IMG/VR virus record: IMGVR_UViG_3300025654_000021
Location: 1 to 37,023 of that record
Direction: 5' to 3' (one strand)
Origin: a virus
Taxonomy: Duplodnaviria; Caudoviricetes
Length of the DNA stretch: 37,023 nucleotides
The notes under the pieces were generated by a model. The model was not told the origin of the DNA. It searched no databases and was given only the letters and a program-made list of their open reading frames with translations. Shown one piece after another: positions 18,199 to 32,378 of the stretch (its first letter is position 1; every line of letters begins with the position of its first letter). Made by a program: the position numbers and the translations under genes.

Positions 18199-18444
18199 TT
18201 ATTTATTTCTAATTATTTCTTTATAATTCTCTCTTGCTTTCTTTAAATCTTTGTAGTCCTTGTTTAGTTTGTTATAAATAGGGTCATCTTTAAAGTTATC
18301 TTTGTAGTCGTCTGGCTCTGCACTCCAATCTTTTATAATTTCTTTGTTAGGCTTTTGGAATCTCTCAAAAAACTCTAACTCTGTTAGTGGGTCTGTTAGT
18401 ATTACGTAGTTCATACGCTCGTATTCTCTTTTACTTGCTCCCAT
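18199..18444 (-). CDS. Hypothetical protein
   Basis: Co-oriented, overlaps upstream gene. Confidence 0.65.
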   Translation of the reverse strand: MGASKREYERMNYVILTDPLTELEFFERFQKPNKEIIKDWSAEPDDYKDNFKDDPIYNKLNKDYKDLKKARENYKEIIRNK

Positions 18445-19039
18445 CAGTAAACGCTTTTGTTAACTTTATTGCTTTTACCTGAATCTCTGTTAAATCGTAA
18501 GTGTCTAAAACTGTTTGTAATTGAGTTTTATTAAACTTCTGTAAGGCTGTGTTAAATTTATCCTCCTCTAATTTAGGTTTATTCCCTTTATGTATATTAT
18601 TACAATACTCGTTTACATCCCAAATTTGTTTACCGTTCTGAGCAGGAAAAAACTTATTATTCTTTTGAATTACTTCTTTAATTTTAATAATCTTTAAAGA
18701 GTATAAAAACCTACCAACTCCCCACATAACAGCAGCTCTTTTAAAAGCGTCGCTTGCCTCTCCTTTTTGTTTTTCTACCTGACTTTCAGTACCGCAATCA
18801 GATTTCCAAATCCAACCTGTATAACCAGAAAGGTCTGTGTGTAATATACCTATACTTGCAAATAAATTTCCTTTATGTTCTTCATACTTTACTTGCCAAT
18901 TACAAGCACCTACAACATCGTCTAATAAATCTTGAACATCTCTAGCATCAATATAAGCTACACAAGTACAACCGTATTGGTTAGTGCTTTGAACCCTCCA
19001 CTTAAAGGGCAATTCTTTTTTTAGTTCTTCTAAATTCAT
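18431..19039 (-). CDS. Sak/Rad52-family single-strand annealing recombinase
   Basis: KWRVQ...VAYIDARDVQDLLDDVVG...W..KSDCG.ES..E..KGEASDAFKRAAVMWGVGRFLY. Confidence 0.85.
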   Translation of the reverse strand: MNLEELKKELPFKWRVQSTNQYGCTCVAYIDARDVQDLLDDVVGACNWQVKYEEHKGNLFASIGILHTDLSGYTGWIWKSDCGTESQVEKQKGEASDAFKRAAVMWGVGRFLYSLKIIKIKEVIQKNNKFFPAQNGKQIWDVNEYCNNIHKGNKPKLEEDKFNTALQKFNKTQLQTVLDTYDLTEIQVKAIKLTKAFTDGSK

Positions 19040-23595: not shown

Positions 23596-23832
23596 ATGAA
23601 AGCATTATTTAATAAAAAGAAAAAACTTGTAAAGCAATTAAATGAAATAGGTTATTTTCTAGATAAAGAAATTGAAGAAAGGTGGGGTTTTCATTACTCA
23701 AAAACAGATAGTGACCCAATGATAGATACCTTAGATTATGGTACATCCGACATAAGTTATAAAGACTTTATTGAGAGAATGGATGACTTTAAAGAAAAAC
23801 AAGATAAAGGAGAGTGGACACCAAATGCTTAA
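23596..23832 (+). CDS. Hypothetical protein (first, degenerate cassette)
   Basis: Ends just before GCATAAC of site 1. Confidence 0.7.
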   Translation: MKALFNKKKKLVKQLNEIGYFLDKEIEERWGFHYSKTDSDPMIDTLDYGTSDISYKDFIERMDDFKEKQDKGEWTPNA

Positions 23833-23836
23833 TTTA

Positions 23837-23970
23837 GCATAACGGATTGAATATGAATAGTGCCGAGCGTAGGGCTGTCCCCTGCGGAGATATAGCGAAG
23901 TAAAGCCTCTTGCATAGCAACGTAACAGGAATATCTTTTGAGGCATTATTTATATTTATTTCTATGTGCT
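23837..23970 (+). repeat. attC-like site 1 (right GTT core degenerate)
   Basis: gcataac; arms aatatgaatagtgcc / ggcattatttatatt; then ttctatgtgc instead of ttgttatgtgc. Confidence 0.6.
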
Positions 23971-24024
23971 TTTTTAATTGCACTCCCATGGTTAGTAGCG
24001 GATTAACAACTTAAAATTTAAAAA

Positions 24025-24162
24025 ATGACACCAAAAGAAAAAGCAAACGATTTACGTGAACTGTTAGAGTGGTTGAGTAACGAAGACTATTTTAATATAC
24101 CTAAAAATGAGATAGGCGAGATTTTAGAAGATTGGCAAACATATAACTCTAATTGTGGCTAA
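24025..24162 (+). CDS. Small hypothetical protein MTPKEKANDLRELL... (45 aa)
   Basis: Stop codon lies in GGCTAAC of site 2; not in track. Confidence 0.65.
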   Translation: MTPKEKANDLRELLEWLSNEDYFNIPKNEIGEILEDWQTYNSNCG

Positions 24163-24286
24163 CGGACTTGGGTATGGTTAGTGCGACCATACAGGTATTA
24201 ACTTTAAATAAAAAACAGAATGAGCAAAATGAAAAAATATTTTGATTTAGCAGAAGAACGAGCATTAACTATACCTGTTGTTATGT
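24157..24286 (+). repeat. attC-like site 2
   Basis: ggctaac; gggtatggttagtgc / gcattaactatacct; GTT at 24280. Confidence 0.85.
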
Positions 24287-24465
24287 GGCGTTTTTGTGCT
24301 TATAAGACTGAAAAAGATTACGAAAGTGGCGAGCATTATTTTATGAAAGACTTTCTTGACCATACAGAAATGAAAGTATTTAGCGGTAAACATTCAGAAA
24401 AAGAAAATCCACTTCACAGCGATTATTGTAGTATGTATTGGAAGATTGATACAAATGCCACATAA
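24220..24465 (+). CDS. Split-module hypothetical protein (starts in site 2, ends in cassette)
   Basis: Junction peptide ALTIPVVMWR; stop inside CATAAC. Confidence 0.7.
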   Translation: MSKMKKYFDLAEERALTIPVVMWRFCAYKTEKDYESGEHYFMKDFLDHTEMKVFSGKHSEKENPLHSDYCSMYWKIDTNAT

Positions 24466-24591
24466 CGGAATTGTGTATGGTATGTTGCGTATAGAGAAGC
24501 ACAGAATTAACGAATTAAAAACTAAATAAATTAATAATAACAAGCCTTTGAAATAGCAGAAAGTAGCAATAGACTATACACGTTGTTATGT
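24460..24591 (+). repeat. attC-like site 3
   Basis: acataac; gtgtatggtatgttgc / gcaatagactatacac; GTT at 24585. Confidence 0.85.
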
Positions 24592-24621
24592 ACTGTGTGA
24601 ACGGTTAAAAAGCAATAAACT

Positions 24622-25209
24622 ATGAATGAAGATAGAACCCAACAAATGTACTATAGCGTAATGAGGCAAAATAAACAAATTGATAGCCAAAAAATACTAT
24701 ATAATAAAACAGGTAATGACGAAGCCTATACGCCTGAATATGGTGTAAAGCCTATTTTAAAGTACATACCAAGTAATTTTGTTGTTTGGTGTCCTTTTGA
24801 CGAAGCTGATTCTGCATTTGTAAAAATGATAAGTAAAACGAATAAAGTAATACACTCTCATATAAGCAATGGGCAAAACTTTTTTGATTATGAGCCTAAA
24901 GAAGATTGGGATTGCATAATAAGTAACCCACCATTTAAAGGAAAGCGACAATTCTTTGAAAGGGCGTTAAGTTTTAACAAGCCATTTGCTTTAATAATGA
25001 CTAACGCTTGGTTAAATGATGCTTACTCAAAAAAAGTTTTTATGGAAGCAAATAAACAAATGCAATTACTGATGTTTGACAAAAGAATAAAGTTTAATAA
25101 TCCTTACGGAAAACCAAACAACAAAATTACGTTTAGTAGTTCTTATTTTTGTGTGGACTTCTTGCCGAATGATTTGATATGCGAGAACCTAAGTGAACAT
25201 TGTACATAA
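24622..25209 (+). CDS. Amino (N6-adenine) DNA methyltransferase, cassette-borne
   Basis: DEAYTP, VVWCPFD, IISNPPF catalytic motif, PFALIM. Confidence 0.8.
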   Translation: MNEDRTQQMYYSVMRQNKQIDSQKILYNKTGNDEAYTPEYGVKPILKYIPSNFVVWCPFDEADSAFVKMISKTNKVIHSHISNGQNFFDYEPKEDWDCIISNPPFKGKRQFFERALSFNKPFALIMTNAWLNDAYSKKVFMEANKQMQLLMFDKRIKFNNPYGKPNNKITFSSSYFCVDFLPNDLICENLSEHCT

Positions 25210-25257
25210 CGTACTTTTATAACAGGTCGTTTTAATGCCTGTTATACGGTGTTGTAC
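25204..25257 (+). repeat. attC-like site 4 (minimal)
   Basis: tataacagg-tcgttttaatg-cctgttata; GTT at 25251. Confidence 0.85.
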
Positions 25258-25294
25258 ATCTGTATTGCGGTTTTAAAGAACAAAATTTTGAATT

Positions 25295-26446
25295 ATGAAC
25301 GAACATAGTAATAACATTTTTGAGCGTGGGCAAATTGCTGACGTAGGAAGCAAAGGAATAAACGTGCTTTCTCTATTTAACGGAATGAGTACAGGACATA
25401 CTGCACTTGATAATGTAGGAATAAAAGTAAACAAATATTATAGTAGCGAATTAAAGCCTTATGCAATAGAATTGACACAACACCACTATCCGGAAACCAT
25501 ACAATTAGGCGATGTAAATAATTGGCGTGAATGGGATATTGATTGGAAAAGTATTGATTTGCTTTTAAGTGGAAGCCCTTGTAAGGATTTAAGTATTGCA
25601 GGAAAACGAAAAGGAATAAACGGAAGTAATAGCGGTTTGTTTTGGCGATTTATTGAAATATACGAACATATAAAATCTTTAAATCCAAAAATTATATTCT
25701 TTCAAGAAAACGTTGGATCTGCACCAAAAGAAGATATTGGAATTATGAGTAGATCAATGGGTGTTTATCCTGTTAGATTTAACAGTAGTTTGGTTACTGC
25801 ACAATTAAGAGATAGATATTATTGGACTAATGCAAAAACAAAACCTTTTGGAATGTTTGGTGATTTAGTTACAGATATTACAGAACCTAAAAACAGAAAT
25901 ATTAAATTGATTGATGTTATTACTGATGGTTGGACTGACAAAGAAAAAGCAAACTGCATTTTAGAAAGTGAAAGCAGAATGACAACGAGCCAAGAAAGTT
26001 TAAAAAAACGATATGTAAAAGACTTTAATACTATTGTTTATTTAGTTGAAAATGAAGTTAGGGTAAAGACAAATACTGTAAAAGGTTATGATGTTTTAAC
26101 TGAAGAAGATTGTTTAAACTTATCATTTCCAAGTAGTACAACAAGACGAGGACGAGTAACTAAAGGAAAAGCACCTTGTTTATTGCAAGGAAACGAACCT
26201 TTATATGTTTTAAAGGATAAACAAGTAAGGATGTTAAATAAGATTGAATTGTGTAGATTACAAGGCTTTCCGGACAATCATTGCGATATATTGAGCAGAA
26301 ACAAAGCGGCTTCACTTTTGGGTGATGGTTGGACTTTACCAATTATAGAACACATCTTCCAATATTTACCTTTTAAAAAAGCGAGGGAAGAAAAAAATGT
26401 TATTACGGAATATAAGCACGAATCTTTGAATAAAACAGGAACGTAG
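25295..26446 (+). CDS. C5-cytosine DNA methyltransferase, cassette-borne
   Basis: VLSLFNG (I), GSPCKD (IV), QENV (VI), QLRDR (VIII), ELCRLQGFP (IX), LGDGW (X). Confidence 0.92.
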   Translation: MNEHSNNIFERGQIADVGSKGINVLSLFNGMSTGHTALDNVGIKVNKYYSSELKPYAIELTQHHYPETIQLGDVNNWREWDIDWKSIDLLLSGSPCKDLSIAGKRKGINGSNSGLFWRFIEIYEHIKSLNPKIIFFQENVGSAPKEDIGIMSRSMGVYPVRFNSSLVTAQLRDRYYWTNAKTKPFGMFGDLVTDITEPKNRNIKLIDVITDGWTDKEKANCILESESRMTTSQESLKKRYVKDFNTIVYLVENEVRVKTNTVKGYDVLTEEDCLNLSFPSSTTRRGRVTKGKAPCLLQGNEPLYVLKDKQVRMLNKIELCRLQGFPDNHCDILSRNKAASLLGDGWTLPIIEHIFQYLPFKKAREEKNVITEYKHESLNKTGT

Positions 26447-26455
26447 CAATATTGT

Positions 26456-26586
26456 GTACAACGCATTGTATAAGGTTTCGTTGCGACCTTGAAACAGCAA
26501 CTAACTTAATTAAAATATAATAAATTATGAGTACAGAAAATAGTAACCAAAAAGATACAAGCAATAAACTTTATACATTGTTAGCA
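26456..26586 (+). repeat. attC-like site 5
   Basis: gtacaac; tgtataaggtttcgttgc / gcaataaactttataca; GTT at 26580. Confidence 0.85.
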
Positions 26587-26799
26587 AATGAGAATTTTAC
26601 AGGTTTTTATGATGACAATAAGCAACCAATTTTAGTTGGTGATAAACTAAAAAGCGAATGGGGTTATGAAGTGATTGTTGTTAAAGGTAAAAATGGTGAT
26701 TATAATGGTAAATTGGTTTGCGATGAAAACCATAGTTGCAAGAATATACCATACGCAATTAACGAAGGCAAGGGACATAGTAAAATTATTTGTTGCTAA
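26527..26799 (+). CDS. Split-module protein, C-part resembles YopX-family C-terminus
   Basis: Junction NKLYTLLAN; FTGFYDDNKQPILVGDKL resembles the YopX TG..D.NG..IYEGD motif. Confidence 0.65.
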   Translation: MSTENSNQKDTSNKLYTLLANENFTGFYDDNKQPILVGDKLKSEWGYEVIVVKGKNGDYNGKLVCDENHSCKNIPYAINEGKGHSKIICC

Positions 26800-26994
26800 C
26801 TAGAATGTGTAAGATTAGTACGATTAATTAATGACTAAATTTAATAAATATGGAAATAGAAAATTGTGTGGTATGTAAAAAATACCTAAATGAAATTGGT
26901 GAACAAGAGCGAGCAATGTGTAATGAATGTGACATAGAAACAGAAGCCATTGCAAAAGAGCAAGAACAAGTATTAATTTTACATGGTGTTACCT
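26794..26994 (+). repeat. attC-like site 6
   Basis: tgctaac; gtgtaagattagtac / gtattaattttacat; GTT at 26988. Confidence 0.85.
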
Positions 26995-27173
26995 GTAGTT
27001 TTGATTTAGCGAAAGCAAACCTAGCTATTCAGTTAATTAAAAAATCTGTATGTGAAAGTGATGTCTTAGACGCTATTTATGTAAAAGAAAAACTCAATTG
27101 GTTTGCGGTGACTGATGATATAAAAGACCTTTGGAATGAATACTATGGTGATGCAAAAAAGTACTTACCTTAA
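26850..27173 (+). CDS. Split-module protein with N-terminal CxxC..CxxC
   Basis: Junction VLILHGVTCS. Confidence 0.7.
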   Translation: MEIENCVVCKKYLNEIGEQERAMCNECDIETEAIAKEQEQVLILHGVTCSFDLAKANLAIQLIKKSVCESDVLDAIYVKEKLNWFAVTDDIKDLWNEYYGDAKKYLP

Positions 27174-27178
27174 ATTAC

Positions 27179-27230
27179 AGGTAACGCATTGTATAAGGTG
27201 CGTTTTAATGCACTTTATACGTTGTTACCT
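27179..27230 (+). repeat. attC-like site 7 (minimal)
   Basis: gtataaggtgc-gttttaat-gcactttatac; GTT at 27224. Confidence 0.88.
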
Positions 27231-27251
27231 ACTGTACTAAAAAAATGAATT

Positions 27252-27902
27252 ATGACTGAACCAAATATAGAATTACTGAACACCGATTGTTTGCTTTTTA
27301 TGAAGCAATGCGAGGATAATCAATTTGATTGGGCAATAGTTGACCCACCTTATGGTATTAACTACGATAAGGAACAGAATAAACAAGCAGAAAATGAAAG
27401 GATTAGCAATGGTGGTAAATGGAAGAAATACCACGATACAAATTGGGATAGTTCTGTTCCTGATATTGAATACTGGAATGAACTTTTTAGAATAAGTAAA
27501 AATCAAATTGTTTGGGGTGGCAATTATTTTTTTGATGTAAAACTAAATGGTGTTATTATATGGAATAAAGGCGAAAATGGAACAATGAAACAAGGCGAAC
27601 TTGCAAAATGCAGTAAAAATACTTTTAAGATATATAATAAAAGTAGAATAGATGCTTATGTAAATAGTGGTGAGCCGAAAATACACCCTTGTCAAAAACC
27701 AATTTCTTTATATGAATGGCTTTTAGATAACTATGTTAATGAAAATGAAAAAATAATTGACACTCATTTGGGAAGTGGAAGCATTGCGGTTGCTTGTTAT
27801 AACCGAAAAATTGATTTAGTAGGAATTGAAATTGATAAAACCTACTTTGACAAAGCAAACAAAAAACTAAAAGATAGAAAAAATGCACCTACTCTTTTTT
27901 AG
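27252..27902 (+). CDS. N6A/N4C DNA methyltransferase (beta class), cassette-borne
   Basis: IVDPPYG catalytic motif, HPCQKP, DTHLGSGS SAM motif. Confidence 0.92.
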   Translation: MTEPNIELLNTDCLLFMKQCEDNQFDWAIVDPPYGINYDKEQNKQAENERISNGGKWKKYHDTNWDSSVPDIEYWNELFRISKNQIVWGGNYFFDVKLNGVIIWNKGENGTMKQGELAKCSKNTFKIYNKSRIDAYVNSGEPKIHPCQKPISLYEWLLDNYVNENEKIIDTHLGSGSIAVACYNRKIDLVGIEIDKTYFDKANKKLKDRKNAPTLF

Positions 27903-27908
27903 TATTGT

Positions 27909-28027
27909 AGGTAACGGTTTGTATATGACACTTAGCAACACAGACCTTTGAGATAGAAAATAAATTAATAATTAAGCACATAGTTAAAAAATAGCCTAAC
28001 AGCTATGTGTTATATACTTTGTTAGGC
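27909..28027 (+). repeat. attC-like site 8
   Basis: aggtaac; gtatatgacacttagc / gctatgtgttatatac; GTT at 28021. Confidence 0.85.
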
Positions 28028-28037
28028 ACAGTTAATT

Positions 28038-28286
28038 ATGGGATTAAAGCAGAAATTAATAAAACACAAGACAGAGTTTTATCGCATTTTCAATGAAGCG
28101 ATTAAAAAAGATGGAGATTTTATAACAGCAGGAGGTAAATTGAGCCATGATGATTTAATTGACAGCCATTTAAGAGCTTGGGTAGCAAGTAGGATTAATG
28201 GTGGTAGTTCATCAATGGTATTTTATGCTGAAGAAGCTGAAGCCATAAAACTCATAGATAAATTGGCAAAAGAGTATTTTTCTTAA
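28038..28286 (+). CDS. Hypothetical protein, whole gene in a cassette
   Basis: Bounded by gttaggcacagttaa / ttaattgtgcctaac. Confidence 0.75.
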   Translation: MGLKQKLIKHKTEFYRIFNEAIKKDGDFITAGGKLSHDDLIDSHLRAWVASRINGGSSSMVFYAEEAEAIKLIDKLAKEYFS

Positions 28287-28290
28287 TTGT

Positions 28291-28521
28291 GCCTAACGGT
28301 TTGGCTATGAATAGTAACGGATTAATAATTACAAAACTTAATAAATATGTACAGTATTAGAACAAATTACGGAACAACACACCAATACATTGAAAGTTGG
28401 AAAGAATGGGATATAGACGAGAACTTTATAGAATTTAAACAAAAAGGTGATTTGTTGATTATACACAAAAGCCAAATTTTAACAATCTATAAGTAGTTAT
28501 TATTTATAGCCTTTGTTGTAA
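28291..28521 (+). repeat. attC-like site 9 (contains a complete ORF)
   Basis: gcctaac; ggctatgaatagtaac / gttattatttatagcc; GTT at 28515. Confidence 0.85.
28347..28496 (+). CDS. Small hypothetical protein (49 aa) wholly inside site 9 loop
   Basis: MYSIRTNYG...ILTIYK*; not in track. Confidence 0.65.
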   Translation: MYSIRTNYGTTHQYIESWKEWDIDENFIEFKQKGDLLIIHKSQILTIYK

Positions 28522-28538
28522 CACGTTTTTAAATGTGA

Positions 28539-28605
28539 TTACAACGGTTTGGCTATGAAGCGTTGTGTAGTGCAACGGAACAATGATTTATAGGTGTTGT
28601 TATGC
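28539..28605 (+). repeat. attC-like site 10 (short), preceded by 31-bp empty cassette 28515-28545
   Basis: ttacaac; ctatgaagcgttgt / acaatgatttatag; GTT at 28599. Confidence 0.8.
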
Positions 28606-28639
28606 ACCGTATTTTTTATAAAACTTAAATTAAAAACAG

Positions 28640-28969
28640 ATGGATTGGATAGAAGTAAAAGAAGAAAGCCACCAAATAAAAAACTGTATTTTGGTAGAAT
28701 GTATTGCAGAAATTAGAAAAAATGATACTGGTGAAATAAGAGAATATGAAACTCACGAAATTTTAGAAATAGGTGACGAACATCCATCTGTTTTTAATTG
28801 GGAAGAGAACAACTACTCTTGTGACTGCAATAGGCTTTTGTTTTTTAACAGAGCAAAAGGCGAAGAGAAAGACGAAGATTGGGATGTAGAATGTACTGAG
28901 GGCAAATTCTCTGTTAATCTAAAAAACAAAAAGGATGGGAAGGCGTACTATCGTGAATATGGTGCATAA
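28640..28969 (+). CDS. Hypothetical protein with NYSCDCNR motif, whole gene in a cassette
   Basis: Bounded by gttatgcaccgtatt / aatatggtgcataac. Confidence 0.75.
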   Translation: MDWIEVKEESHQIKNCILVECIAEIRKNDTGEIREYETHEILEIGDEHPSVFNWEENNYSCDCNRLLFFNRAKGEEKDEDWDVECTEGKFSVNLKNKKDGKAYYREYGA

Positions 28970-29164
28970 CTTAAATGGTTAAGGTTAGTTGCGTGAATAA
29001 GTAATGAAGTAAATAGATAATCGATATGAACGAAGATATTAAAAAAGAAATTAGAGAAATAATACATACCTATTGTGGTGGAAATTATGAAAATAGAAGA
29101 ATGGCAACAGAACTAATTTTACAAAAATGCCAAGAAAAGCAATTAACTTTAACCGATGTTAGCC
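28964..29164 (+). repeat. attC-like site 11
   Basis: gcataac; ggttaaggttagttgc / gcaattaactttaacc; GTT at 29158. Confidence 0.88.
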
Positions 29165-29277
29165 AACTACGTGAACTGTTAATAGCTTTTGATGCTATGC
29201 GAGAATTTGACATTAAGCACGATGATATAGAAGAAAGTGTTGACTACTTCTTAAAACACAAAGAAAGCTATTTATAG
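29026..29277 (+). CDS. Split-module hypothetical protein
   Basis: Junction QLTLTDVSQLRELL. Confidence 0.7.
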   Translation: MNEDIKKEIREIIHTYCGGNYENRRMATELILQKCQEKQLTLTDVSQLRELLIAFDAMREFDIKHDDIEESVDYFLKHKESYL

Positions 29278-29278
29278 T

Positions 29279-29474
29279 GGCTAACTGAATTGTGTAAGAT
29301 TAGTATTAACGGAATAGAAACAATAAATATAAAAATTATGGATAAATGTAAATGGAACTTTAAAGTATTAAACCACTATGTAAGATTGACTGTTGAAAAT
29401 AGATTTATAATACTTGGTTATAGAGGCGAAAATTGGAAAGAGTTAGTTAATATTAATTTTACACTTTGTTAGCA
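29279..29474 (+). repeat. attC-like site 12
   Basis: ggctaac; gtgtaagattagtattaac / gttaatattaattttacac; GTT at 29468. Confidence 0.88.
29338..29472 (+). CDS. N-module ORF terminating at the junction with an empty cassette
   Basis: ATG 29338 (MDKCKW...NINFTLC*); stop is TAG of GTTAGC. Confidence 0.6.
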   Translation: MDKCKWNFKVLNHYVRLTVENRFIILGYRGENWKELVNINFTLC

Positions 29475-29498
29475 AAACGAAGTGTACGTTTTAATGAT

Positions 29499-29553
29499 TG
29501 CTAACGTTAAGTATATGAGCCTGTACTTGTATGGCTTATATACATTGTTATAC
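29499..29553 (+). repeat. attC-like site 13 (minimal), preceded by 38-bp empty cassette 29468-29505
   Basis: tgctaac; gtatatgagcc / ggcttatatac; GTT at 29547. Confidence 0.85.
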
Positions 29554-29627
29554 CCTGTTTTTTAAGCGTTGGGAAAAATAATTTACAGAAAAGAGTATTT
29601 TTATTTGGTAGTAATTACAGAATACTG

Positions 29628-29635
29628 TATATTTG
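29628..29635 (+). promoter_or_regulatory. Cassette-internal promoter (TATATTTG with TTTG at 29604-29607)
   Basis: Matches Bacteroidota -33/-7 consensus. Confidence 0.7.
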
Positions 29636-29666
29636 TAGTGTAATAATAATTAAAACAAAATAAACT

Positions 29667-29933
29667 ATGAAACTTTGTAAGAAAACAAATAAGATAAAAG
29701 GCTTTTGGGTAGAGGATTACACAGAACAAGAAAAAGAGTTTTTTATTGGATTAGGGTTTACTGAAAGACGTGTTAAATTTATGGATGAGTGGATGAGTGG
29801 TTCACTTTCTTTTTACGGTAGTAGAAGTTTTGGTTTTTGGAATGATGAAGAAACTAAAACGATTTATGATGCAGTAAAAAAAGAATTTGGTAAATGTAAA
29901 CCAAGATTATTAACCACAGCAGAATTAATGTAA
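29667..29933 (+). CDS. Hypothetical protein (gene 1 of two-gene cassette)
   Basis: Follows internal promoter. Confidence 0.75.
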   Translation: MKLCKKTNKIKGFWVEDYTEQEKEFFIGLGFTERRVKFMDEWMSGSLSFYGSRSFGFWNDEETKTIYDAVKKEFGKCKPRLLTTAELM

Positions 29934-30091
29934 TGAGCAAAGACCTAATAAAATGGAGTGAGCTTAGTCGTAAACTAAGTGGTTCAGATAATTCTATCAG
30001 ACCAAACAAAGTACCTAAGAAGTACGAACAGAAAGTAAATCGTTTGCTATGGATTCTCGATTTGTGGGAGCGTTGGGCAAATAGGGTATAA
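29933..30091 (+). CDS. Small possible DNA-binding protein (52 aa; gene 2 of cassette)
   Basis: TAATG coupling; MSKDLIKWSELSRKLSGSDNSIRPNKVPKK...; stop within GTATAAC; not in track. Confidence 0.7.
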   Translation: MSKDLIKWSELSRKLSGSDNSIRPNKVPKKYEQKVNRLLWILDLWERWANRV

Positions 30092-30278
30092 CGTATGTGG
30101 TTAAGGTTAGTTGCGTTATTGATAACACAAAAATAAATAGATATGACAATAGATAACTTAATTAATTGGTTGGAAGAAGCCGAAGATAATAACACTTGGT
30201 TAGTAAGTACACAAAGTGTAAAACGACACCTTGAAAAAATAAAAGAAACTGAGCAATTAAATTTAACCGATGTTAGCC
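30086..30278 (+). repeat. attC-like site 14
   Basis: gtataac; ggttaaggttagttgc / gcaattaaatttaacc; GTT at 30272. Confidence 0.88.
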
Positions 30279-30394
30279 AACAACGTGAACTGTTTTATAA
30301 TTTTATTACTTGGTATAACGCAAAACCTAAATTAGAAAAAAATAAAGATGGGTTAGTTACTATTGGTGTAATAGATGAGTTTTTAAAATTATAA
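30143..30394 (+). CDS. Split-module hypothetical protein
   Basis: Junction QLNLTDVSQQRELF. Confidence 0.7.
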   Translation: MTIDNLINWLEEAEDNNTWLVSTQSVKRHLEKIKETEQLNLTDVSQQRELFYNFITWYNAKPKLEKNKDGLVTIGVIDEFLKL

Positions 30395-30400
30395 TATAGT

Positions 30401-30604
30401 GGCTAACGTGCTTGTGGTATGGATAGTTGCGTAAAAATAAAACAAAACTTATATAAATGGAAAAAACAGAATTGATTAAAGGTATTTTGAAATTAGGCGA
30501 AGAACTTGATAAAGACCACGGAATGGGAAGCGTTATGATAATTGATGATATGCAAAGACTTGTAGATAAGTACGTAGAGCAATTATCTATACCACGTGTT
30601 GTAA
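30401..30604 (+). repeat. attC-like site 15
   Basis: ggctaac; gtggtatggatagttgc / gcaattatctataccac; GTT at 30598. Confidence 0.88.
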
Positions 30605-30750
30605 AATCGTTGCCGACTGATGAAGAAATATATTCTGAGGGATGCAACTATGTTAGAAAAATAGAACAACCTAATAGACAACCTTTAATTACATTAAGAC
30701 GAACTTTTAAGGCTGGTGCAGAGTTTGTAAAAAAGCAATTAGACAACTGA
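30457..30750 (+). CDS. Split-module hypothetical protein
   Basis: Junction QLSIPRVVKS; C-part LPTDEEI...FKAGAEF. Confidence 0.7.
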   Translation: MEKTELIKGILKLGEELDKDHGMGSVMIIDDMQRLVDKYVEQLSIPRVVKSLPTDEEIYSEGCNYVRKIEQPNRQPLITLRRTFKAGAEFVKKQLDN

Positions 30751-30763
30751 TTTAGGTTATGTT

Positions 30764-30956
30764 TTACAACGGTTTGTATAACCTTACTAGCGAAAATTAA
30801 TAACTTAAAATAATAAATAATGACTGATAAAGAATTTAATAAACTTGACAAACACTATAATAAATTAGTGAAGAAAGGAACCATAAAAACAATGAATGAT
30901 GCCTACATTTATAAATTAGCAATAGAAAAAGCTATTAAGGTTATACGTTGTTGTGA
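30764..30956 (+). repeat. attC-like site 16
   Basis: ttacaac; gtataaccttactagc / gctattaaggttatac; GTT at 30950. Confidence 0.88.
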
Positions 30957-31110
30957 AACGTTTGAGGTTAAAGAAGTACCTACTTTTGAGGAATGGAAGA
31001 AACAAAATTACATACACTATGATAAAGGACAGTTTGCAAGAAAAGCAGAAGGTTTAAAGGATTTAGAACAACTTAAACAAATATACAATAAGGAAATACT
31101 AAACCTCTAA
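30820..31110 (+). CDS. Split-module hypothetical protein
   Basis: Junction AIKVIRCCET. Confidence 0.7.
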   Translation: MTDKEFNKLDKHYNKLVKKGTIKTMNDAYIYKLAIEKAIKVIRCCETFEVKEVPTFEEWKKQNYIHYDKGQFARKAEGLKDLEQLKQIYNKEILNL

Positions 31111-31114
31111 TGTT

Positions 31115-31307
31115 TTACAACTTAAAAGTGTATGATTAGTAGCGTGGGATAATAACTAAATAAAATAAGAATGAATAAACTAAAGGAAATAATTGAACGA
31201 GTAAAAGAGTATGAGGATAATAACTGTTTTGAATTAAAAACAAGTGTTGTTTTGCATTGGCTAAATGAAATACAAAAAGAAGCTATTAATTATACACATT
31301 GTTGTAA
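31115..31307 (+). repeat. attC-like site 17
   Basis: ttacaac; gtgtatgattagtagc / gctattaattatacac; GTT at 31301. Confidence 0.88.
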
Positions 31308-31422
31308 AAGCGATAGCGAACTGTTACCTAGTTTTCTTTATAAAAAGGGAGGCTTATATTTTAAGTACAGAGAAGATACAGATGTTACAGAACATTGGAA
31401 TGAATACCTAAAAACTAGGTAA
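31171..31422 (+). CDS. Split-module hypothetical protein
   Basis: Junction AINYTHCCKS. Confidence 0.7.
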   Translation: MNKLKEIIERVKEYEDNNCFELKTSVVLHWLNEIQKEAINYTHCCKSDSELLPSFLYKKGGLYFKYREDTDVTEHWNEYLKTR

Positions 31423-31426
31423 TTGT

Positions 31427-31496
31427 TTACAACACAAAGATAAAAACACGTTTTAATGTGTTTTATCGACTGTTGACCAACGTTTTAATGTTGGTA
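31427..31496 (+). repeat. Terminal minimal site 18 plus terminal empty half-cassette
   Basis: gataaaaacac-gttttaat-gtgttttatc; GTT at 31472; accaac-gttttaat-gttggt lacking closing AAC. Confidence 0.8.
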
Positions 31497-31520
31497 TTTA
31501 ATTAATAAAACTAAAAACAA

Positions 31521-32378
31521 ATGAGCGAAGAGCAAAAAGAAGAACAACACGAGCATATTATGTCTATGCAAATGATACAAGAAGAGTGCGCTATTAACAT
31601 TAATGAAAAAATAGAACATCCTCCAGTAGCAATTAGCTATAAGACTAAAGAAGTAGTAACTAAAGACGGAGAGATTAAAGAGTTTCCTATACCAATAGGC
31701 ACTTACGGTAACTTTAGCTTTATACAAGCACCTCCTAAGTCTATGAAGACATTTTTTGTTAGTTTGTTAGGCTCTGCTTATTGTAACCCAAATGGAACTC
31801 ATACATCAGGACTAAGCTCCTTTAGAGAAGACAGAGAGTATATCCATTTCGATACAGAGCAGGGAGACTGGCATTCACAGCGTGTATTTAAACGTATTCA
31901 ATGGATGAATAAAGAGTCTAACTTAGACTTCTACCATACATTTGCGTTAAGAAAGATAGGTTTTAGAGATAGAATAAACTTTATAGAATACTATTTGCAG
32001 ACATTAACAGATACTGGTAAGAAGATAGGTGTAGTAGTTATTGATGGTGTAGCAGATTTAGTATCCGATGCAAACAATCTTGAGGAATCAAACCTCGTAG
32101 TACAGAAGATTATGGCTTGGACAACTATTTATGATTGCCATATCATTACAGTAATACACTCTAACTTTGGCTCAGACAAGCCTACAGGGCACTTAGGGAG
32201 CTTCTTAGAGAAGAAAGCAGAGACTCAGATACAATTAGAAAGAGACCCTAATAAACTAGGTGCTATAACAGTATCTTGCAAGAGAAGTAGAAACACACCA
32301 TTTGAGCAGTTTGACTTTAGATTAGACGATAACGGTTTGCCTAAGATAGATAACCCAGATGATGTTTATAGTTTCTAA
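31521..32378 (+). CDS. RecA-fold ATPase (AAA_25/RepA-helicase-like)
   Basis: Walker A variant APPKSMKT, FDTEQG, Walker B VVIDGVAD, VIHSN...GHLGS. Confidence 0.8.
   Translation: MSEEQKEEQHEHIMSMQMIQEECAININEKIEHPPVAISYKTKEVVTKDGEIKEFPIPIGTYGNFSFIQAPPKSMKTFFVSLLGSAYCNPNGTHTSGLSSFREDREYIHFDTEQGDWHSQRVFKRIQWMNKESNLDFYHTFALRKIGFRDRINFIEYYLQTLTDTGKKIGVVVIDGVADLVSDANNLEESNLVVQKIMAWTTIYDCHIITVIHSNFGSDKPTGHLGSFLEKKAETQIQLERDPNKLGAITVSCKRSRNTPFEQFDFRLDDNGLPKIDNPDDVYSF

Follow-up and report, generated by a model that had tools for sequence, protein, structure and literature searches.

Loop-started read-through genes and their re-paired halves in an integron-like array of a flavobacterial-type phage

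The virus record IMGVR_UViG_3300025654_000021 (G000), a linear contig analysed over its entire length of 37,023 nucleotides (nt) and referred to here as the window, carries an array of hairpin sites on its plus strand (23841..31474) that is probably integron-like. The hairpin loops hold gene starts that continue into the bodies behind them, and the front and back halves of these genes are re-paired, likely by an external tyrosine recombinase acting mostly at the AAC core of the sites and sometimes at the GTT core. Judged from sequence comparison, the array has this anatomy, its genes read through in frame, their halves are re-paired, frame-matched and under purifying selection, and its units are reordered, deleted and joined into circles or tandem repeats from AAC to AAC.

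The array comprises one decayed and 17 intact sites (S0 and S1 to S17) alternating with 16 bodies, each site having the form AAC, left arm, loop, right arm, GTT. An arm-pairing detector recovers 12 sites in 23701-31600, compared with 0-1 in 20 resampled sequences. The seven bases following each GTT agree with the reverse complement of the end of their own body at 5.8 of 7 positions and with other ends at 2.7, and 0 of 100,000 permutations reach the own-end value. The AAC and GTT cores with complementary body ends have the form of an integron array, as do the imperfect hairpin, the unpaired central spacer and the variable terminal structure (loops of 44-223 nt). The 14-nt arms align without gaps and bear G.T wobbles at two constant positions, with 29 counted on the coding strand and one on the other, and the coding strand is the better fold in 16 of 17 arm pairs, the arm register having been selected with a small G.T bonus. 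In 16 of the 17 window sites the left spacer exceeds the right by 2-4 nt. The wobble and spacer counts, like the match-end counts given below, used 25254 as the right core of S3, later reset to 25251; a larger wobble count (493 versus 9) is biased, as the detector rewards G.T pairs on the coding strand. The extrahelical L-stem bases that select the strand in integrons do not occur within the 14-nt arms, which show the fixed G.T wobbles instead. All sites lie on one strand, and the presence of 17 attC-like sites with no PF00589 match in the record, which is estimated to be 98% complete, corresponds to a cluster of attC sites lacking integron-integrases (CALIN). Rfam returned 0 matches at E up to 1. 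A 10-nt apex motif is common to short hairpins and empty bodies (window positions 25228, 27201, 29487, 31449 and 31481) and recurs in many loci.

Nine open reading frames (ORFs), named here by their start positions, begin inside site loops on the plus strand, and all nine were confirmed at the coordinates and with the junction peptides proposed by the sequence-only reading; eight cross GTT into the next body and 29338 ends at the junction. GTT is read in frame, giving a valine (V frame), in 24220..24465, 26850..27173, 29026..29277, 30143..30394 and 30457..30750, with the junction peptides LTIPVV, LILHGV, LTLTDV, LNLTDV and LSIPRV among them. The frame is ttG-TT in 26527..26799 (LYTLLA) and tGT-T in 30820..31110 and 31171..31422 (VIRCC and YTHCC) and in 29338-29472 (FTLC*). 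The starts of 24220 and 26527 are contained in S1 (24161..24282, 122 nt) and S4 (26460..26582, 123 nt), and the front halves of 26850, 29026, 30143, 30457, 30820 and 31171 lie in S5 (26798..26990, 193 nt), S10 (28968..29160, 193 nt), S13 (30090..30274, 185 nt), S14 (30405..30600, 196 nt), S15 (30768..30952, 185 nt) and S16 (31119..31303, 185 nt), respectively. The ninth frame stops at the junction of S11 (29283..29470, 188 nt), which is followed by an empty 38-bp body. Of the 12 long loops, 9 have an ATG-led frame of at least 17 codons that reaches GTT, whereas shuffling gives a mean of 1.3 and a maximum of 5 in 2000. The ATG stands 52-59 nt past AAC in eight of the nine ORFs and 67 nt past it in 26527, and 45-70 nt past AAC in 95 of 123 read-through frames of other loci. 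Six of the eight back halves contain no Met. The body of 24220 has its own Met directly after GTT, so that its front half may be dispensable.

The front halves of 30143 and 31171, described earlier as seemingly homologous, prove to be distantly so: a hidden Markov model comparison among 108 fronts gives E 1.1e-4 (next best 0.16) and a pairwise shuffle p 0.0016. Overall, the 108 fronts fall into 99 clusters. The proposed RELL/RELF/SELL family of back halves following different fronts holds for a shared head of about eight residues and fails as a single module; beyond that head, the four window back halves have no detectable likeness (shuffle p 0.08-0.83), and 68 RELL-type back halves form 50 clusters. 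One proposed member, ORF 24025..24162 (plus strand), does have a RELL-headed back half, but it is joined directly to a short front with no junction present. Because a 91% identical copy of this back half stands behind a normal junction in locus L086 (L numbers denote the loci compared), the junction is judged to have been lost in the window. Two further observations concern the same anatomy. The gene 28347-28496 in the loop of S8 starts 52 nt after AAC and resembles a front half with a retained stop codon, and near position 3026 of L127 a single ORF crosses two successive junction-like stretches, giving a three-part protein.

Searched separately, one and the same half turns up with many unrelated partners, and similarity stops at the V/C junction, as the sequence-only reading had expected. 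The front half of 30143 (residues 1-44) is present in 59 proteins including the window's own, with lengths of 45-146 amino acids (aa) and identities of 67-100%. On a manual reading of the list, V occupies the junction position in 51 of the 58 relatives; none of the 58 has the window's back half, and their backs form 50 clusters, with three too short to cluster. Behind a single front with a single arm, at least ten different residue pairs directly follow V. The back half of 30143 is found with two other fronts (L004, L007); its matches in L008-L017 are DnaA proteins and were discarded as chance. The back half of 30820 occurs in seven proteins, once with the same front, once with a truncated front and five times with unrelated fronts; four of these five show V-type junction peptides, which points to a frame switch for this back half. 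Of the 36 representatives of the 30457 front, 24 carry a back of at least 20 aa, these backs all falling into separate clusters and none resembling that of the window, and seven are stand-alone proteins of 44-49 aa. Other fronts precede the back of 31171 in L096 (83%) and the back of 29026 in L050. S8 recurs at 99% identity over 223 nt in L024 with other flanks on both sides. The isolated phages JQ, Leef_1, Freya_10, P12002L and P12002S have the same read-through anatomy, which is therefore not an assembly artefact.

The further suggestion of de novo gene generation finds no support, since fronts also occur as stand-alone small genes and back halves with starts of their own. In Cellulophaga phage phi17:2 the front of 26850 forms a stand-alone 41-aa gene that no site flanks, and the front of 26527 is a polar leader of 16-19 residues (18 in the window), with 23 of 65 relatives beginning at the junction with their own Met and without a leader. 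Nor does fusion replace whole-gene capture, as had been supposed, because the array also holds complete genes in 6 of its 16 bodies, three of them DNA methyltransferases. In a near-identical phage (L124:956-1405), an extra body carries a 149-aa ORF on the host-type strand, while the loop-started frame reads through for 125 or more codons on the phage strand. This body may be a cassette captured from a host and may offer a way for new back halves to arise; an origin of new genes de novo from antisense host cassettes was considered and set aside, as this single case is insufficient.

Frame matching provides a second line of evidence. A RELL motif search covered 74 viral loci with 64 distinct junctions, and among those with enough upstream DNA, the window's two included, an ATG-led frame of at least 15 codons is present in the V frame in 63 of 63 and in the other two frames in 0 and 3. 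The 88 motif-independent junctions that have a single front frame (57 V, 23 C, 8 L) remain open for at least 20 codons in 69 cases, compared with a permuted mean of 42.8 and a maximum of 54 in 10,000. For swaps within the window, 22 of 22 same-frame and 10 of 34 cross-frame combinations are open for at least 25 codons. Between the front of 30143 and six relatives with other backs, synonymous divergence (pS) is 0.11-0.75 and nonsynonymous divergence (pN) 0.025-0.16, the ratio being biased low because the loci were found by protein search, a bias that tells against this part of the evidence. For 14 back-half pairs chosen by DNA identity, pS is 0.28 and pN 0.044. On these comparisons both halves are under purifying selection, and translation across the junction is indirectly supported by frame matching, selection and mostly Met-less backs. 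No infection proteomics for a phage seen here to carry the array was among the papers listed by a literature search.

The proposal that recombination at GTT makes the chimeras stands in part: the halves are re-paired, but routine and recent exchange occurs at AAC, and GTT is the rarer site. In 9 of 10 pairs of bodies with at least 80% identity, the sequence directly behind AAC belongs to a different hairpin, and an integron-style linkage of body with downstream hairpin was rejected on this count. In 9 of 10 pairs with upstream sequence, the same back half has different fronts at 87-97% DNA identity. Among 53 same-hairpin pairs, which are non-independent events, a weakness of the count, 12 keep only the downstream body, one only the upstream body, 39 neither and one both. 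For window matches of at least 90 nt and 94% identity, 21 ends fall at AAC, two at GTT (a single contig counted twice) and five elsewhere, against a background of about 5% of positions near either core. An all-against-all BLAST statistic of match ends was too noisy, near background, and was not used.

Near-identical phages provide the clearest view of recent events. In L124, a 99.5-100% identical phage, units are reordered and joined at AAC. L125, a 2293-nt viral contig with a 123-nt terminal overlap, corresponds to window 26797-28971 and is, from its sequence, a 2170-nt circle or tandem repeat of the five units S5-S9 closed at AAC; L001 shows the same circle or tandem pattern for S12-S15. Among the joints listed for contigs of eight runs, the long-sided joints 25206>27912 and 28294>26460 occur in three runs each and are AAC-to-AAC, as are the further joints 28966>26797, 25207>26460 and 29502>30768. 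All joints listed are skips or back-jumps, with a strand change in none. The isolates P12002L and P12002S likewise differ at AAC cores. Because near-identical phages reorder, delete and circularise from AAC to AAC, the routine unit is taken to be a hairpin with its downstream body, which leaves the fused gene intact. Re-pairing at GTT is by the same comparisons a rarer event, yet one that has occurred dozens of times for one front. Some breaks lie exactly at GTT: S8 and its copy in L024 share 0 letters beyond either core, and most short-hairpin pairs have 0-4 letters in common after GTT. Other breaks fall 6-28 nt inside shared heads.

The orientation of the sites suggests how two cores could come to be used. 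Arrays of the same sites occur on a Flavobacteriaceae chromosome (L139, G001), with long genes that include GmrSD/Schlafen, SUFU and transporter families. The coding strand of bodies is the opposite strand in 13 of 14 chromosomal cases and the same strand in 90 of 114 phage cases; the integron arrangement, with the gene upstream of attC and on the unfolded strand, is thus that of the host arrays (13/14) and not that of the phage array, whose genes occupy the wobble strand and move together with the hairpin upstream of them. On the assumption that the wobble strand is equivalent to the integron bottom strand, host arrays are oriented as usual and phage genes are inverted; the usual crossover would then be expected at the phage AAC, and this prediction agrees with the observed exchange point. 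The coding strand would accordingly be the one that folds, with genes inverted relative to host arrays, and a routine crossover at AAC would carry a hairpin and its downstream body with the fused gene intact. Arms without a bulged base may make strand choice leaky, so that the other strand is sometimes used; crossover would then fall at GTT and join one front to another back, and selection would retain the frame-matched products.

The enzyme is, on sequence grounds, most likely the Xer-like recombinase heading Flavobacteriaceae chromosomal arrays or a short phage-borne relative. A 394-aa tyrosine recombinase stands at the head of one host array. Of 41 genomes of the family, 26 contain relatives, and in 12 of the 20 loci fetched the gene is followed by sites within 1.5 kb downstream, all in one orientation. 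The candidate scores 203.7 against the TIGR02249 cut-off of 265 and spans 20 residues where IntI4 spans 63, and therefore lacks the IntI insertion. In PMC8138268 this insertion is described as essential for integron function; no IntI integrase with the insertion is present in the window, and the host candidate falls below the cut-off. Short Xer-like genes also follow the array in L096 (6415-7230) and in the Polaribacter phages Leef_1 (L176, 5989-6852) and Freya_10 (L177, 4147-4962). Such genes are read as signs of a temperate lifestyle in PMC8776804, where the word 'cassette' does not occur; the 'integrases' of Leef_1, Freya_10 and L096 may instead be cassette recombinases rather than lysogeny integrases. 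The L096 recombinase gave no further viral relatives, and a long gapped site pattern, which was too strict, had no match in four genomes.

Several observations weigh against a two-core recombinase acting on this array. No integrase was detected in the 98%-complete record by protein family annotation or a six-frame PF00589 search, and a recombinase is absent from four of five related phage records, one of them complete. No long-sided GTT-to-GTT joint is present among the joints listed for the eight runs. In four of five long-hairpin pairs, which join read-through fronts to different bodies, 8-28 letters are common after GTT, so that those breaks lie off the core, two of the four pairs being one event and the RELL search favouring shared heads. 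Off-core joints also exist at 24025 and, in L124, at the methyltransferase 24622. At least three different arm pairs, with differing leaders, enclose the front of 30143, and the arms are damaged or missing in some loci; exchange must therefore also take place within the loop, and a crossover confined to the cores leaves this unexplained. Among the loci compared, 24220 and 26850 have no other pairing, and neither 29338 nor the front of 29026 has a relative.

These observations bear on what performs the re-pairing step. We lean slightly towards a recombinase crossover at GTT, regard phage homologous recombination in the shared arm and head as rather doubtful, and consider it decidedly unlikely that the joints were made once at cassette birth. 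A fuller account in which all site-specific movement is at AAC only, while the halves are re-paired by phage homologous recombination over 20-45 nt of right arms and body heads and the chimeras are a repeat by-product, is unlikely. The window does encode NinB, NinG/Rap, RusA and, at 18431-19039, an Erf-like annealing protein, right arms vary behind one front half, shared heads reach 8-28 nt past GTT in several pairs, off-core joints occur, and promoter early stem-loop (PeSL) repeats are reported in PMC2839356 to shuffle genes of T4-type phages and make mini-circles. Such recombination does not readily explain the 99% identity of S8 over 223 nt with nothing in common beyond its cores, the 0-4 letters after GTT in most short-hairpin pairs, or the variety of residue pairs after V behind one front and one arm.

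It is very improbable that each pairing was made once at cassette birth, comparable to the near-identical Vibrio cholerae repeats (VCRs) joined to hundreds of genes, with front and back never separating later. All recent rearrangements keep front and back together, and several pairings are stable across relatives (P0062, L124, L125, L134), but the same back with different fronts at 87-97% DNA identity would then need repeated capture of the same body. It is barely credible that the hairpins alone matter and that the read-through frames arose incidentally or through chimeric assembly at repeats, given the frame matching, the low pN/pS in both halves, the fixed start position and the same anatomy in isolated phages, even though most relatives are metagenome assemblies and no function, family or fold was found for the fused proteins. 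The favoured account of an integron-like array moved by an external recombinase extends to a broader and more tentative proposal, held with somewhat less than even confidence, in which a recombinase common to flavobacterial phages and hosts uses both cores of a translated hairpin, one core reordering genes and the other splicing modules in three frame classes, and a shared pool continually builds and selects two-part proteins.

The remaining features of the array, all on the plus strand, are hairpins and whole-gene or empty bodies. S0 (23841..23965) is decayed, and its right core was not found. S2 (24464..24587, 124 nt) precedes the DNA methyltransferase 24622..25209 (phrog_799), and S3 (25208..25253, short, right core 25251) precedes the methyltransferase 25295..26446, which is missing through an AAC-to-AAC deletion in run X8. 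The short hairpin S6 (27183..27226, 44 nt) is followed by the methyltransferase 27252..27902 (phrog_67), and S7 (27913..28023, 111 nt) by the whole-gene body 28038-28286. S8 (28295..28517, 223 nt), with its complete 49-aa gene in the loop, is followed by an empty 31-bp body, which with the 38-bp body after S11 makes two. The short hairpins S9 (28543..28601) and S12 (29503..29549) precede the whole-gene body 28640-28969 and a two-gene body (29667-29933 and 29933-30091), respectively; the hairpin S12 has other flanks in L107 and L129, and the array ends in the short hairpin S17 (31431..31474). In L124 and three runs the N-terminus of the first methyltransferase differs at 24622-24673, the joint lying in a short shared sequence off any core. 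A generic sigma-70 scan gave promoter-like sites at chance level (35 versus 47 ± 8.5 shuffled), terminator-like sites number 4 versus 2.4 ± 1.5 shuffled, and the Bacteroidota -7 motif is at chance level.

The record encodes head, tail, tape-measure, primase-helicase, Erf-like, NinB, NinG/Rap and RusA-like proteins and is a flavobacterial-type siphophage. Its array lies between the primase-helicase region and ORF 31521. Relatives reached through this flanking gene have almost none of the array in common, as seen in the 20 loci compared out of 43 (19 of 26 plus L001). In L098-L121, upstream of the 31521 homologue, the flank protein is 94-97% identical and the array almost wholly different; some carry other arrays at that position and in several none was detected. 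Array pieces match phages of Tenacibaculum, Polaribacter, Flavobacterium and Cellulophaga, which points to a flavobacterial host. The DNA runs containing the stretch are marine metagenomes, and no RNA dataset containing it was present among the runs listed. In the host-array loci L139 1001-15362, L141 4008-9544, L142 and L143, defence-type and transporter genes occur with IS110 copies; a Flavobacteriaceae host array is headed by an Xer-like recombinase and an HU-like gene, the G001-type recombinase lying at L141 8360-9544, and one inverted phage-type read-through cassette lies in a host array at L139 7700-8130.

The read-through proteins have no informative PHROG or NCBIfam family and no Atlas family, and tblastn of 24220, 29026 and 31171 in annotated phages gave no match. 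The AlphaFold model of 30143 (predicted local distance difference test, pLDDT, 71; predicted template modelling score, pTM, 0.34) has four helices, one across the junction, with no Foldseek match at E 0.001. The fused genes adjoin three orphan methyltransferases in the replication region, a neighbourhood that suggests putative small helical accessory proteins acting on the host.

The array described here would amount to a naturally occurring system by which bacteriophages fuse proteins combinatorially, and selection can be seen on the two halves. It would account for a group of small flavobacterial phage ORFans in which the halves show unrelated homologues, and it connects the accessory genes of phages with chromosomal arrays of hosts that contain defence-type genes. 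The cultured phages P12002L/S, JQ, Leef_1, Freya_10 and phi13:2 make cassette birth, the joining of a gene to an attC-type site, testable, together with the possible action on folded single strands of a tyrosine recombinase that lacks the IntI insertion. If a recombinase does use both cores, the phage pool keeps assembling and selecting new two-part proteins.

Among known systems, the closest is the CALIN type reported in virulent phages, including Polaribacter phage P12002L, by Qi et al. 2023 (PMC9892861). The attC1 of P12002L is a short hairpin of the same site family in gene orientation, and its array likewise has orphan DNA methyltransferase cassettes and no integrase, as far as described there. 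Two sites were called in that report, whereas nine are detected here in the 14 kb scanned, in at least two separate arrays (L178, L180). In attC2 the phage AAC core was taken as R', on the strand opposite to the genes. The site recombined with IntI1 only from the phage coding strand (PMC9892861), a result that fits folding of the coding strand and gives partial support, attC2 being a terminal half-site with an altered cloning flank. The full family site attC1 gave no recombinants with IntI1 in the same report, a further point against the proposed mechanism. Loop-started genes, read-through and re-pairing are not described in its section 3.4 and supplement rows, and a literature search that left most subscription journals outside its range found phage CALINs only, with no description of loop-started read-through genes or re-paired halves.

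Integrons (PMC2727003) share with the array AAC/GTT cores, an imperfect hairpin, an unpaired central spacer, a variable loop and self-complementary body ends, as well as direct-repeat organisation, one-core excision and reordering, and chromosomal arrays beside a tyrosine recombinase. The phage array differs from them in having genes on the opposite strand, a loop with a start codon and as many as 47 codons, bodies that lack a start, 14-nt arms without a bulged base but with two fixed G.T wobbles, a candidate recombinase without the IntI insertion, and halves re-paired at the second core. A precedent for a leaky second core is provided by VCRs without extrahelical bases, for which strand choice is relaxed and crossover moves to the R'' box (Bouvier et al. 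2009, PMC2727003). The PeSLs of T4-type phages (Arbiol et al. 2010, PMC2839356) are likewise structured elements present in repeated copies, through which small phage genes are shuffled and mini-circles arise; as presented there, they are promoter-terminator units between genes, whereas here promoter-like sites are at chance, the ends are 3-base cores and the element is, by its reading frames, apparently translated. A strong sigma-70 promoter and terminator in each repeat, characteristic of PeSLs, is not found in the array.

In shufflons (Rci/sfx, exchanging the pilV C-terminus) and tail-fibre invertons, site-specific recombination inside a reading frame also swaps protein ends, with one constant N-terminus, few C-termini, inverted sites and the enzyme in cis. 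The phage array has none of the inverted sites, cis invertase or constant N-terminus of these systems; its sites are direct, both halves vary, three frames are used and the pool is common to phages and hosts. In class 1 integrons, attI1-encoded N-terminal fusions and attC translational coupling allow a recombination site to give a start codon to a cassette, and the 18-residue leader of 26527 resembles such a leader, but the class 1 leader is fixed and short, whereas the array has conserved fronts of about 45 residues in many families. By the integrase, orientation and extrahelical-base tests the array is not an integron, and its anatomy fits that of a CALIN.

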